Positions 13,147-19,606 of a stretch of DNA of 48,364 bases are shown piece by piece. Source of the stretch: Elusimicrobiota bacterium (lineage in GTDB: Bacteria; Elusimicrobiota; Elusimicrobia; Elusimicrobiales; UBA9959). The notes beneath the pieces were generated by a model. It made no database searches. It worked only from the letters and a program-made list of their open reading frames with translations, and had not been told where the DNA came from. The stretch is from contig DAIENX010000087.1 in assembly GCA_027340875.1 (NCBI GenBank), forward strand, positions 1 through 48,364. The letters run 5' to 3'. Position numbers and translations under genes: made by a program. The number at the start of each line of letters is the position of its first letter. Positions within the stretch are counted from its first letter, which is position 1.

Positions 13147-14616
13147 TTATACACTTTTTTCGGGAATAGTCACGCTGGCGCGCGAAGCCACGGCGCGCTT
13201 CCGGATCTCCAGCGCGAGGCCGCGGAACATCCACACGTGCGCCGGGTAGAGCGAGTACCAGTAGACGTTGCCCAGCAGGCCGCGCGGCTCGAAATAGGCG
13301 GTCAGCCGGAACTCCGAACCTCCGCCCGACGGCACCGCCTCGAACTGCAGCCAGCCCTTGCCCGGCAGGCGCATCTCCGCCCGCAGCAGCAGCATGCTGT
13401 CCGGTATCACGCGCTCTATCCGCCAGCAGTCGAGGGCCTCGCCCTGCCTGATCCGGTCCGGATCGCGCCGCCCGCGGCGCATGCCTATGCCGCCGACGAG
13501 CCGGTCCTGCATGGCCTTAAGGTCCCAGAGCCAGTCGCCGTAGAACCAGCCGCGCGCGCCGCCGATGCCGGAGAATACCCGGTACACGGCCTCAGGCGGC
13601 GCCTCGACGTGGATCACGTGCGCGTGGCGTATCAGCCCCTCGCTGTCCTTGAAGGTGTACGGCTTAGCGTAGGAAGGCGTGAAAGCTGAGGTCCAGGAGG
13701 TCTCCACGGCGTTCTCGCTGAGGCGCACCAACGCGTACTTGACGGCCGTGGAATAGTCTAGCGGTTTTATCTCCGGGAACAGCTCCGCCGCGTCCCCCTC
13801 CACGCAGGTTACATCGCAGGCCAGGCTCTCTATCAGCGGCTTGGCCAGCACCCTGGGCACCGGGGTTATCAGCCCGACCATCGCGCTGCAGAGCCCCGTG
13901 CTCCAGCCCTTCAGGTCTATGAACCGGCGCTTCAGGCCGCGTATCTCGGCGTAGATGCGCAGCAGCTCCTCGTAGGTATGCTCGGTGGCGCCGCCGATCT
14001 CTATGACGCGCCCGGCGGTCTCCGGCTTAGACAGACAGCTCACCAGGTAGTTCAGCGCGTAGCGCACGGCTATGGGCTGGCAGCGCGCGCCGAGGAAGCA
14101 CGTGCTCGGGATGACGGGGAGCCGCTCGACGAGGTAGCGTATCATCTCGAACGAGACGCTGCCGGAGCCGACTATGATGGCGGCGCGGAACTCGGTGACA
14201 GGGACGCCGCAGGAACGCAGCACCTCCCCGACGCGGTGCCGGGAGCTCAGGTGCCTGGAGAGGCGCGGCCCCTCGCCGCCGAGGCCGCCCAGATAGACGA
14301 TCCTTTTACAGCCGGCCTCAGCCGCGGCTTTCGCGAAGTTAAGGGCCGAGACCTCTTCCATCCTCTCGTAGCCGGGGACGTCGGCCATCGAATGGACAAG
14401 GTAGTACGCGGCGTCGGCGCCGGCCAGGGCCTCCGCAAGCCCCTCGTTCTTATAGACGTCGCCGCGGAAGATCCGAACGCGTGAGGCCCATGCCCTGCCG
14501 TCCAGCCTCTCGGGATGCCTGGCCAGGCAACGCACGTCATAGCCCCTGTCCAGCAGGCGCAGTATCAGCCTGCCGCCGATATAGCCGGTGGGGCCGGTCA
14601 CCAGTATAGTCTTCAT
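13147..14616 (-). CDS. Atypical SDR/NAD(P)-binding oxidoreductase with C-terminal DUF2867 (YbjT-like)
   Basis: ILVTGPTGYIGG, AYYLVHSM, RAAIIVGSGS, LLRAEMRLPGKGWLQF. Confidence 0.88.
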   Translation of the reverse strand: MKTILVTGPTGYIGGRLILRLLDRGYDVRCLARHPERLDGRAWASRVRIFRGDVYKNEGLAEALAGADAAYYLVHSMADVPGYERMEEVSALNFAKAAAEAGCKRIVYLGGLGGEGPRLSRHLSSRHRVGEVLRSCGVPVTEFRAAIIVGSGSVSFEMIRYLVERLPVIPSTCFLGARCQPIAVRYALNYLVSCLSKPETAGRVIEIGGATEHTYEELLRIYAEIRGLKRRFIDLKGWSTGLCSAMVGLITPVPRVLAKPLIESLACDVTCVEGDAAELFPEIKPLDYSTAVKYALVRLSENAVETSWTSAFTPSYAKPYTFKDSEGLIRHAHVIHVEAPPEAVYRVFSGIGGARGWFYGDWLWDLKAMQDRLVGGIGMRRGRRDPDRIRQGEALDCWRIERVIPDSMLLLRAEMRLPGKGWLQFEAVPSGGGSEFRLTAYFEPRGLLGNVYWYSLYPAHVWMFRGLALEIRKRAVASRASVTIPEKSV

Positions 14617-14686
14617 ACGCGGCGCCCGGCGCTGGCCTGCGGCGCTAGCCTATGGTACAAAAAATCCCGCAGCGTAAGGTCTGTCC

Positions 14687-15202
14687 TTAGCCTCCCGCCT
14701 TCCTCCTGGCCGCCAGCTCCGCCATGATGGCCGGCAGCGCGGCGCGCAGGAACTGCAGCAGCACTGCGCCGGCTGCGCTCCCGACGGCAAAGGTGTCGTC
14801 CACCGGCCCGGGCAGGTTCAGCGGCAGCATCTCGTAAAGGAAGACGAGGGCCGGCAGCAGCAGCCACTTGAGCCCGGTGGCGTAGCGCTTGGCCAGCGCC
14901 ATGCAGGCTCCGAGCATCAACCCGGCCGCGATGAAAGCGGGGGCTGAGAACAGGCTGACGCCTATGCTGAACGGGGCAAGGACCAGCGACCAGATGACCG
15001 CGAAGGCCGGCGGAAGAGCCGCGTCAGCGTAGGTGAACTTCCTCACCAGGAGCAGGCTGACCGCGGCGGCGGCGAAGAAAATGGTGAACACTACGGCCCC
15101 GGCCAGCAGGCCGGCGCGTAGGTCCCTGGCCGCCCAGCCTATGACGAAGGCCAGCAGCGAGAAAGGGAAAGAAAGCGTGGCTATCGCGATGCTGCGCCAC
15201 AT
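14687..15202 (-). CDS. Hypothetical integral membrane protein
   Basis: GGAGG RBS before ATG at 15202; 5-6 hydrophobic segments; C-terminal LPGPVDD resembles DUF1232-type loops. Confidence 0.7.
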   Translation of the reverse strand: MWRSIAIATLSFPFSLLAFVIGWAARDLRAGLLAGAVVFTIFFAAAAVSLLLVRKFTYADAALPPAFAVIWSLVLAPFSIGVSLFSAPAFIAAGLMLGACMALAKRYATGLKWLLLPALVFLYEMLPLNLPGPVDDTFAVGSAAGAVLLQFLRAALPAIMAELAARRKAGG

Positions 15203-15230
15203 GCCGAAGACCTCCGGAGGCGGTCTCCTG

Positions 15231-15264
15231 AAAAGCGAGAGCCCCCGCAAAACGGGGGCTCTTC
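15231..15264 (-). terminator. Intrinsic terminator/attenuator closing the A-less unit
   Basis: AGAGCCCCCG-UUUUG-CGGGGGCUCU stem followed by CGCUUUUC. Confidence 0.7.
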
Positions 15265-15544
15265 ACCTGGCCAGAAGGCCAGCACCGCGTAAGGGGCGAC
15301 CGGGGGACCGCCGGGGCACGAAACGCCGCCGAAGGGCCGGAGCACCCGCCCGGGCCGGGGCGACCGCGCCGCGGACCGGGGACCCCGGGGGAGCCGCGTC
15401 GCCAAGCGAGCCAGCGGACCGGGGACACGCGCCGGGACCGGGAGACCCCCGACCCAACCGACCGCACCGGGCCCCCCGACGCAGCGACCAGACCGAACCG
15501 CGGGACCCGAACCACAACCGGCGCAAGGAAAAGAGCGGTACTGC
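15231..15544 (-). ncRNA. Candidate novel adenosine-depleted, GGU-repeat non-coding RNA (or long leader)
   Basis: Only one T on + strand in 15291-15538; promoter upstream; terminator-like hairpin at the 3' end; 5' CAGUACCGC pairs with GCGGUGCUG near the 3' end. Confidence 0.65.
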
Positions 15545-15550
15545 AAATCT

Positions 15551-15579
15551 AATATAACAGATGCCGCTTGACTTGTCAA
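15551..15579 (-). promoter_or_regulatory. Near-consensus sigma70 promoter
   Basis: Minus strand TTGACA (15579-74), 17-nt spacer ending TGT, TATATT (15556-51); extended -10 TG; predicted TSS about 15544. Confidence 0.8.
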
Positions 15580-15613
15580 GGGGTATACTTAAAATTCCAG
15601 ACCACTCCTGATA

Positions 15614-15755
15614 TGCGTGGGTTCTGTCTTCGGATTGTCGCGTCAGGCACGCTATCGGCCACACCGTGGCCGCGCTCCCGCTCGGGCTCGTCGCTTACGC
15701 AAGCCTCGCCCTGCGCGAGGGCCTTTCTCGCCAATCCGAAGACAGGACCTGCGCA
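15614..15755. repeat. Palindromic MITE/REP-like element
   Basis: 24-bp terminal inverted repeats (21/24); internal CCACACCGTGG and GCAAGCCTCGCCCT modules shared with 35184-35355. Confidence 0.7.
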
Positions 15756-15758
15756 CAC

Positions 15759-15789
15759 AAAAAAGAGCCCCCGCCGTTTAGCGGGGGCT
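15759..15789 (-). terminator. Intrinsic terminator (likely ends icd-containing transcript)
   Basis: AGCCCCCGC-cgttta-GCGGGGGCT with AAAAAA on left; stem nearly identical to that at 15238-15262. Confidence 0.7.
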
Positions 15790-15803
15790 GGCTTGCGAGC
15801 GCT

Positions 15804-15996
15804 GGCGCACCCGGCTTGCCGAAACGGGCCGTCACGGACCGAGCCGCTTGCATAGCGCGGCGAAGGGGATGGAGCAAAGCGACAGGTCTGCGTGGCGAGC
15901 TCTGCACGGTGGCCGCCTGATGAGCATAGCTCCTGATGCGGCACGGCCATTGGCCAGTGCGCGACCGCGTGCCCGGAGCGGTAAGCCGGGTGTGCC
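15804..15996. repeat. Palindromic MITE/REP-like element
   Basis: TIR GGCGCACCCGGCTTGCCG / CGGTAAGCCGGGTGTGCC (16/18); internal 15867-15975 closely matches 35512-35622. Confidence 0.75.
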
Positions 15997-16040
15997 TGCG
16001 TGGCTGCGGCGCGGCCGTCAGGCCCTGGCTTCCTGCGCCA

Positions 16041-19606
<3,566 letters not shown>

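Follow-up and report, generated by a model that had tools for sequence, protein, structure and literature searches.

A multi-copy family of adenosine-poor non-coding RNAs with a boxA-like leader in the Elusimicrobiales

In a 48,364-nucleotide stretch of DNA from an Elusimicrobiota bacterium (assembly GCA_027340875.1, contig DAIENX010000087.1, positions 1 to 48,364; hereafter the window), we found that positions 15544 to 15231 of the minus strand are an independent gene for a non-coding, highly G+C-rich, A-poor structured RNA of ~314 nt. We hold with high confidence that it belongs to a real family of non-coding RNAs that has not been described before, and the copy in the window is the extreme case of the A-depletion that runs through this family. 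What is new here is the family itself, its restriction to one Elusimicrobiales family among those sampled, the helix P0 together with a set of hairpins, and the boxA-like leader of the rRNA type.

A discrete adenosine-poor RNA gene

The gene stands out by its base composition. Over 248 nt of the plus strand (15291-15538), a base count gave 99 C, 97 G, 51 A and a single T, at 15399, with the nearest further Ts at 15290 and 15539. This recount agrees with a first-pass annotation of the window, made by a model from the letters alone, which had noted one T in these 248 nt and two in 270 nt. The genome that holds the window (G000; 2,805,542 bases, 92.45% complete) has 18.2% T, and the two T-free runs on either side of position 15399, 15400-15538 (139 nt) and 15291-15398 (108 nt), rank second and fourth by length across it. 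The predicted RNA consists of 2.5% A, 36.9% C, 38.9% G and 21.7% U, which bears out its earlier description as a nearly three-letter G/C/U molecule. The RNase P RNA and the tmRNA of G000, both located elsewhere in the genome, contain 22.2% and 20.7% A, respectively; A-avoidance is therefore a trait of the RNA family and not of the genome or of its structured RNAs. A composition scan of the whole of G000 for stretches of 150 nt containing no more than 3 A or T returned 10 regions, among which, besides the locus studied here, only C69:6331-6555 shows a promoter, an A-poor body and a terminator. Further long T-free or A-free runs of G000 (C11:27943-28104, C112:5625-5752, C81:8640-8776 and C1:22483-22586) resemble low-complexity coding DNA, rich in Lys/Glu/Asp/Gln or Ala/Pro/Gly codons, and on inspection were without the promoter and terminator build of the RNA gene.

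An assembly artefact, a concern already raised in the first-pass annotation, is ruled out by exact contig matches: Logan contigs from two further DNA runs of the same study are identical to the window over 15000-15272, 15243-15374 and 15345-15670. The organism's DNA is present in runs X1-X4.

The A-poor tract is framed by signals for the start and the end of transcription. In a promoter scan, the sigma-70-type promoter reached 11 of 12 consensus matches with a TG before the -10 box, and the previously proposed TTGACA-17-TATATT with extended -10 stands. Two promoter-like sites were found in the region, compared to 0.0 ± 0.2 in shuffled sequences, and the pattern CTTGACAAGTCAA-N7-CTGYTATAYT is kept in all 15 orthologous loci. 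At the other end, the GC hairpin followed by a U-tract, which had likewise been predicted, is visible in the sequence. Its stem (helix 13 in the alignment of 15 orthologues) shows 97.8% pairing, and 12 of its 16 pairs never change; it forms an invariant G+C stem of 13-14 bp, and its core C-G pairs are retained in 61-63 of 63 aligned family members. Upstream, a second intrinsic terminator on the same strand, called by the terminator scan at 15789..15766, stands between the gene for a monomeric isocitrate dehydrogenase and the promoter, and the RNA unit is therefore separate from that gene.

All six reading frames are open across the tract, which is uninformative because the tract lacks T on one strand and A on the other and every stop codon needs both. 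The indel pattern is more telling: 42 of the 46 indel runs that separate orthologues have lengths not divisible by 3, and orthologues of 344, 355 and 375 nt differ in length by 11 and 20 nt. The overlapping open reading frames (ORFs) 15263-15664 (-), 15033-15557 (+) and 15576-16067 (-) gave no match in Pfam, and the minus strand of the tract allows no ATG. Judging from this pattern of change, the RNA gene is non-coding. The view of the first-pass annotation that this is a stand-alone unit on the minus strand, running from promoter to terminator, thus holds.

Hints of expression came from two RNA libraries of other habitats, from two studies, in which the contigs that match the RNA all fall within 15283-15533. 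Library X7 contains one 249-nt contig of a relative, 232 nt of which align to 15300-15533 (12 differences, 4 gaps). Library X12 contains seven contigs of relatives, 33-214 nt in length, on 15300-15468, and one more on 15641-15681. Neither library had a contig on the flanking genes, and several contig parts that extend off the window (loose ends) are likewise nearly T-free. These contigs are consistent with discrete transcripts; stretches of the window that no RNA contig covers do not count as signs of silence.

Members and spread of the family

The RNA, presented in the first-pass annotation as one candidate non-coding RNA, is not a singleton: nhmmer found 2 copies in G000 (contigs C13 and C69), and relatives are numerous. 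A BLAST search with 15200-15620 against 41 genomes matched in 24 of 24 genomes of the same genus and in none of 16 genomes from two other families of the order. The 15 best orthologous loci all carry the promoter and the terminator module, and their RNAs are 306-396 nt long with 2.5-8.8% A. An exact scan for the promoter in one genome per species gave 110 stretches, nearly all from metagenome-assembled genomes titled Elusimicrobia, Elusimicrobiales or Elusimicrobiota. Of these stretches, 95 continue past the promoter with A-poor sequence starting with G-Y-A-G-U, 14 have ordinary composition downstream, and one is too short to judge.

From these data, 66 distinct full-length members were extracted, which are 231-595 nt long and form several subfamilies; two of them (L064 and L093, ~590 nt) are internal tandem dimers of the core. 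Across the 66 members, A has a median of 6.9% in the whole RNA (range 2.5-11.3%) and of 4.8% in the RNA body (0.4-10.2%), and U has a median of 23.8% (16.0-30.7%), compared to a median of 20.4% (15.1-30.0%) for the mean of A and T in the flanking DNA. In a relative whose locus has 55% G+C, A amounts to 3, 3 and 11 per 100 nt within the RNA and to 20-35 outside. The expectation of the first-pass annotation that homologues should share the A-depletion is thereby confirmed.

For the distribution of the family we searched with a pattern made of the -10 box plus the leader. With at most one mismatch, 3 of 151 genomes of the class matched, all of them in family f1, and none of 144 genomes of 15 other families did (one control match). 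Within f1, 49 of 60 genomes match at two or fewer mismatches, and matches with 0-1 mismatch span five genera. Two-mismatch matches outside the window's genus are unreliable because control matches occurred in 12 genomes, all outside that genus. Within the genus, the number of pattern matches per genome ranges from 0 to 6. By this sequence search, the family appears confined to one family of Elusimicrobiales among the genomes sampled. The conserved core motif did not serve as a probe: with 2 mismatches in 401 genomes of the phylum it was unspecific, and reversed-pattern controls matched at a similar rate. A recurrent match of this motif in 40 of 77 genomes of one gut genus was rejected, as it lies in ordinary coding-like DNA with no A-depletion.

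Paralogues hold their chromosomal place. For the type found in the window, 15 of 21 loci are situated downstream of the isocitrate dehydrogenase gene; for two other paralogue types, 14 loci follow a polysaccharide-deacetylase-like ORF. Paired copies 0.6-4.4 kb apart were seen at G017:C9:63333/64161, G015:C7:49841/54221 and G020:C2:393839/394435.

As anticipated in the first-pass annotation, cmscan of the whole window against Rfam 15 at gathering thresholds gave 0 matches. In a permissive scan of 14000-17000 the best matches had E >= 0.35 and fell on terminator hairpins, which is chance level. The family is undescribed in Rfam 15 and among the papers listed, by title and abstract start, in literature searches on Elusimicrobia non-coding RNAs, RNA motifs and adenosine-depleted RNA.

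The promoter of the family also precedes other sequences. One of the 14 stretches of ordinary composition (L025) has a c-di-GMP-I riboswitch near the promoter match. At least two other conserved sequences of ordinary composition follow the same promoter, in L062, L082 and L102 and, downstream of position 730, in L074 and L098; one of these groups shares ...GAAGCGAAAACCCGCC.... None of these sequences has an Rfam match at gathering thresholds, and they may be further unknown RNAs of Elusimicrobia.

The leader, the helices and the GGU arm

The best-conserved part of the family is its 5' end, which reads A-G-U-C-Y-U-G-(A/C/U)-U-C-U-Y-U-U. The motif G[ACU]UCU[CU]U[UCA] occurs within the first 30 nt in 56 of the 66 members and at +9 in 50 of them, compared to a background in G000 of 0.0065 per 30-nt window. 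This leader motif resembles the boxA consensus found in the rRNA leaders of E. coli and B. subtilis. In the forms UGAUCUUUUAAA and UUGCUCUCUAAAAAA it is found 2-4 times in the 16S leaders of all five same-genus genomes with an assembled 16S gene. These leaders (L137-L141, 700 nt upstream of the 16S rRNA) contain two or three tandem TTGACA-type promoters, each of which is then followed by a boxA-like element. In G000, a leader of the form TATAAT-N6-GUAGUCCCGUUCUUUGAGAA is situated ~200 nt upstream of the tmRNA (leader at 1270-1300 and tmRNA at 1501-1852 of locus L018, contig C81), and this tmRNA may also be made with a boxA-like leader. The genes for NusB and Rho are present in G000. According to PMC13753749, boxA recruits NusB:S10 and suffices to form the rrn antitermination complex, blocks Rho and interferes with intrinsic termination, and also precedes the suhB and CRISPR operons. 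Taken together, we consider it likely that nucleotides 7-20 of the RNA function as a boxA.

Immediately downstream of the leader, compensatory changes support a long-range helix, P0, which encloses a G/U-rich arm of variable length. The two strands read GCGUCG/CGACGC in four sequences, GCACCG/CGGUGC in two and GCUCCG/CGGAGC in one, and the G-U intermediate GCGUCG/CGGCGC occurs in six. Further downstream, helices 9-11 of the P1/Pa region are 85-90% paired in the 15 orthologues with both sides changed in three pairs, and a hairpin of at least 4 bp is found at Pa in all 42 aligned members, which represent 33 distinct sequences there. The stem of the 3' hairpin varies, as judged by eye, between CUGGCC/GGCCAG, UCCGG/CCGGA and UCUGG/CCAGA; in this helix (helix 12) both sides changed in two pairs, yet only 75% of cells are paired in the alignment. 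Loops are mainly U-rich, for example UUCG and CUUCG. Substitutions between close orthologues are mostly exchanges of C and U (10 of 16 and 12 of 16), an excess that is expected if G-C and G-U pairs interchange. RNAalifold placed only 14 pairs on the 63-sequence core alignment. As column scans for helices were ambiguous, we report only P0, P1/Pa, Pc, the 3' hairpin and the terminator.

The 9-bp closing helix that the first-pass annotation had drawn between the two ends of the RNA is present in the window copy and in its minimum-free-energy fold, but it is not conserved. Among the 15 orthologues, pairing is seen in only 65% of its cells, and most sequences leave three of the eight pairs open (3/384 is unpaired in 12/15, 6/380 in 11/13 and 10/376 in 7/13). 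The 5' strand of this helix overlaps the conserved boxA-like leader.

The arm is where most of the GGU triplets lie. The RNA contains 21 GGU, compared to 12.5 ± 2.2 in dinucleotide shuffles, and 13 GGUC, compared to 5.1 ± 1.8; none of 500 shuffles reached either value, and both counts of the first-pass annotation were thus reproduced and exceed chance. The enriched unit is CGGU (13 vs 4.8 ± 2.0, 0 of 500 shuffles), with a median z of 4.16 across the family and 95% of members above 2. Runs of CGGU in the arm have a period of 5-6 nt, as in GCGGU-UCGGU-CUGGU, and the arm differs by 10-31 nt in length between close orthologues. CCCGG is also frequent (10 vs 3.5 ± 1.6 in shuffles). GGA is absent from the 314-nt RNA and, at 0.4 of expectation, is among the most depleted trinucleotides of the family. 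The coordinates of these features are given in Table 1.

Table 1. Features of the RNA gene and its upstream terminator, in positions of the window.
Feature	Position	Strand	RNA nt	Description
Intrinsic terminator	15757..15789	-		10-bp stem, tail CTTTTTTGTG; upstream of the RNA promoter, downstream of the isocitrate dehydrogenase gene
Sigma-70-type promoter	15551..15579	-		-35 TTGACA 15579-15574, 17-nt spacer, TG-extended -10 TATATT 15556-15551
Predicted RNA	15231..15544	-		314 nt; start G15544 predicted from the -10 box, 3' end from the terminator
boxA-like leader element	15525..15538	-	7-20	CCGCUCUUUUCCUU
P0, 5' strand	15518..15524	-	21-27	GCGCCGG
Variable G/U-rich arm	15436..15517	-	28-109	12 of 21 GGU, largely in consecutive YGGU pentamers
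Hairpin at end of arm	15451-15439	-		GGGG/CCC
P0, 3' strand	15429..15435	-	110-116	CCGGCGC
Domain P1	15383..15424	-		CCCCGG / CCGGGG, around hairpin Pa 15415-15393
Hairpin Pc	15355..15374	-		folds with at least 4 bp in every one of the 42 aligned members, 40 distinct sequences
Core motif, most conserved	15337..15354	-		CCCGGGCGGGUGCUCCGG; family consensus CCCGGGYGGGUGUUCCGG
3' hairpin	15267..15282	-		CUGGCC-UUCU-GGCCAG
Terminator module	15231..15266	-		GUGAAGAGCCCCCG-UUUU-GCGGGGGCUCUCGCUUUU; hairpin and UUUU visible in the sequence

The genes next to the RNA are ordinary metabolic genes, and the DNA between the isocitrate dehydrogenase terminator and the RNA promoter has features of its own. 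The -35 box sits within a palindrome, TTGACAAGTCAA, and a divergent promoter-like site (15568-15595, +; TTGACT-16-TAAAAT, 10 of 12 matches) faces a region with a long inverted repeat (tgtcttcggattg ... caatccgaagaca, within 15600-15760). The promoter core with TTGACAAGTCAA was seen at three further sites of G000, C65:128465 (-), C21:40633 (+) and C81:24895 (-), where unrelated sequences follow; two of these sites appear to lead into protein genes. In the DNA runs X2 and X3, positions 15646-15713 and 15918-15951 are covered at a depth of 340-1033, compared to ~8-15 nearby, with many loose ends. The elements at 15646-15713 and 15884-15985 are probably short repeats that are multi-copy in the community.

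Candidate mechanism, rival explanations and known systems

Taken as a whole, the findings are best explained by a Nus-antiterminated stable RNA that acts as a multivalent binding platform, an interpretation to which we give an even chance of being correct. The boxA-type element of the nascent RNA would recruit NusB-S10 and thereby set up a Rho-resistant antitermination complex of the rRNA style, so that the long, C-rich and untranslated RNA would be shielded from Rho like rRNA. The invariant, unusually long G+C-rich terminator hairpin would then be the sole stop for such a complex. The antitermination complex may in addition help this low-complexity RNA to fold; the rrn antitermination complex has a role in the folding of rRNA. 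P0 closes off the arm of YGGU repeats, and after it comes the conserved core, made up of short G-C hairpins whose loops are U-rich (UUCG-like). In this way, an abundant and long-lived RNA would offer many single-stranded G/U-rich YGGU sites, together with the core, to a protein partner. The change of run length in the arm between close species is what a multivalent binding platform would show. The sponge or scaffold mechanism in itself is tentative, and we regard it as a possibility rather than an expectation. Exclusion of A would remove AUG, all stop codons, GGAGG/GGA sites and the targets of A-dependent ribonucleases, and would make elongation nearly independent of ATP.

As a partner for the arm, an RRM-type or other oligomeric binder is a reasonable, if unproven, candidate. 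Neither Hfq nor CsrA (PF02599) was found in G000, an absence that a 92%-complete genome leaves unproven. G000 also contains three genes with an RRM_1 domain, two of them ~0.8 kb apart at C80:18904-20131 and one at C101:42495-42704 (L150-L152). In its most far-reaching form, the proposal would be that of a new class of stable RNA, written in three letters (G/C/U) under direct selection against A, made with the help of rRNA-type antitermination, and acting through its expandable arm as a YGGU sponge or scaffold for an oligomeric RNA-binding protein, such as one of the RRM proteins, that persists or continues to be made under A-dependent RNases or scarce ATP. We consider this full version unlikely.

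Several observations weigh against the explanation by an antiterminated binding platform. The minimum free energy of the RNA is -178.1 kcal/mol with a z of -1.18 versus dinucleotide shuffles, and a z of this size makes the folding energy uninformative for such a composition. Pairing over the whole structure is only modestly higher in the 15 orthologues (81.5% of cells) than in shuffles (80.9%). A unique secondary structure could not be fixed, because six or more CC(C)GG(G) segments can pair among themselves. Part of the GGU arm is missing in three orthologues, and the arm may therefore be dispensable. The copy in the window has other bases in place of the As that follow the boxA core in most members (…CUCUUUUCCUU; UCCUU for UAA), so that binding of NusB-S10 may be weaker for this copy. 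A strict terminator scan (>=5 T) did not call the RNA's own terminator, because its tail has only four U. Lastly, the RNA-library contigs derive from relatives (~94% identity), are blind to strand, ends and level, and come from libraries that may contain DNA.

Alternatively, the RNA might be a trans-acting regulator that works by base pairing, through C-rich stretches (UCCCC, CUCCC) to G-rich ribosome-binding sites or through GGU to the RCC at tRNA 3' ends. Both modes have precedents: C-rich loops of some Gram-positive small RNAs pair with G-rich ribosome-binding sites, and RNase P RNA, by its GGU motif, and T-boxes, by UGGN, pair with tRNA 3' ends. The excess of CCCGG and GGU over shuffles and the CUCCC-containing conserved segments in the core consensus speak for such a role. 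Since Hfq was not found in G000, the pairing would have to be independent of it. However, most C-rich and G-rich segments are complementary within the RNA itself, which may leave few of them free, a contact of three bases between GGU and RCC is too weak alone, and a conserved multi-hairpin core of ~200 nt exceeds what simple antisense pairing needs. We therefore judge this alternative to be improbable, though it fares best among the rivals.

The RNA could also bind the transcription machinery, either as a polymerase-binding RNA like 6S or Ms1 or as a boxA decoy that titrates NusB-S10. This would suit its strong promoter, its boxA-like leader and its several paralogues; 6S paralogues exist in some bacteria. 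It would also suit the fact that the Rfam 6S model (RF00013) found no 6S RNA in G000, a silence that says little because the model matches only 5 of 14 control genomes. The small-SRP model likewise found nothing in the 92%-complete G000. Against this role, the family has no similarity to 6S or any other Rfam model, the predicted folds are multi-branched or made of short hairpins and, on a loose check of shape, do not form a rod with a central bubble, and the family lengths of 231-595 nt exceed the typical length of 6S RNA. Such a function thus seems quite unlikely.

A further alternative is that A-depletion is a mutational by-product, caused by adenine-specific mutagenesis as in diversity-generating retroelements or by strand-biased transcription damage. 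The composition itself would fit, as an even redistribution of 18% A predicts ~38% G, 38% C and 24% U, compared to the observed 38.9, 36.9 and 21.7%. No reverse transcriptase domain (RVT_1) was found in the 92%-complete G000 or among the neighbouring genes, however, and the differences between close orthologues, being mostly C-U exchanges, are not centred on A. The RNase P RNA and the tmRNA of the same genome keep their A, and the depletion ends sharply at the promoter and the terminator while conserved As persist at fixed places within the RNA. These points make a by-product very improbable.

Even less probable is a cis-acting leader or attenuator of the downstream gene, which runs from 15202 down and encodes a small membrane protein. 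In the window and in 3 of 14 other loci (G002, G012 and G013), a gene whose product starts with MWR.. does begin within ~30-50 nt of the terminator. In contrast, the downstream sequence differs in 11 of 15 loci, the closest relative (95% identity) has an NmrA-like gene next, the paralogues stand in other contexts, and there is no match to a riboswitch in Rfam. Finally, a protein-coding reading, with an Arg/Gly/Pro-rich peptide (minus strand) or a disordered, hydrophilic protein (plus strand), gains from the six open frames, which follow automatically from the missing T/A, and is so strongly opposed by the indel pattern, the orthologue lengths, the ORFs without Pfam match and the lack of any possible ATG that we dismiss it.

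The loops and tertiary contacts of structured RNAs normally depend on adenosine. A conserved multi-copy family in which the A content of the body goes down to 0.4% therefore represents a natural, nearly three-letter functional RNA and raises the question of what selects against one nucleotide. The boxA-like leader, if it works as one, would mean that Nus-factor antitermination reaches beyond rRNA and CRISPR arrays, to a stand-alone non-coding RNA of a phylum that has been little studied. Furthermore, the module of promoter, leader and terminator provides a ready marker for other stable RNAs of Elusimicrobia.

Among known systems, the CsrB/RsmZ sponges are, like the family, stand-alone RNAs between a strong promoter and a terminator, with several paralogues per genome and with a short G-rich motif that is repeated many times, in numbers that vary between relatives. 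The family differs by (Y)GGU in place of GGA and by the fact that CsrA was not found in G000. It has no Csr/Rsm match in Rfam, and the likeness is one of logic only. Csr/Rsm RNAs are not known to have a large conserved core or a boxA-like leader, both of which are features of the family. The TRAP sites of the Bacillus trp leader are (G/U)AG triplets spaced 2-3 nt apart; the G-containing triplet runs of the family with their period of 5-6 nt are a similar layout for a ring-shaped or oligomeric reader, but the triplet is another one and the repeats lie in a stand-alone RNA instead of an mRNA leader. OLE, GOLLD, ROOL and raiA are large structured bacterial RNAs of unknown function, all of them in Rfam, in which tertiary motifs such as GNRA loops and A-minor contacts depend on A. 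Like them, the family is a lineage-restricted, conserved, multi-helix non-coding RNA; unlike them, it has no cmscan match and is nearly free of A, with U-rich loops. With 6S and Ms1 RNA it has in common a strong promoter, paralogues and a probable abundance, whereas the model match is missing and the predicted architecture is another one. Finally, like the boxA antitermination units of rRNA operons, CRISPR arrays and suhB, the family has a boxA-like sequence near the 5' end of a long untranslated transcript; in contrast to these units, the transcript that carries its element is short (~0.3-0.6 kb), stands alone and has an intrinsic terminator at its end.

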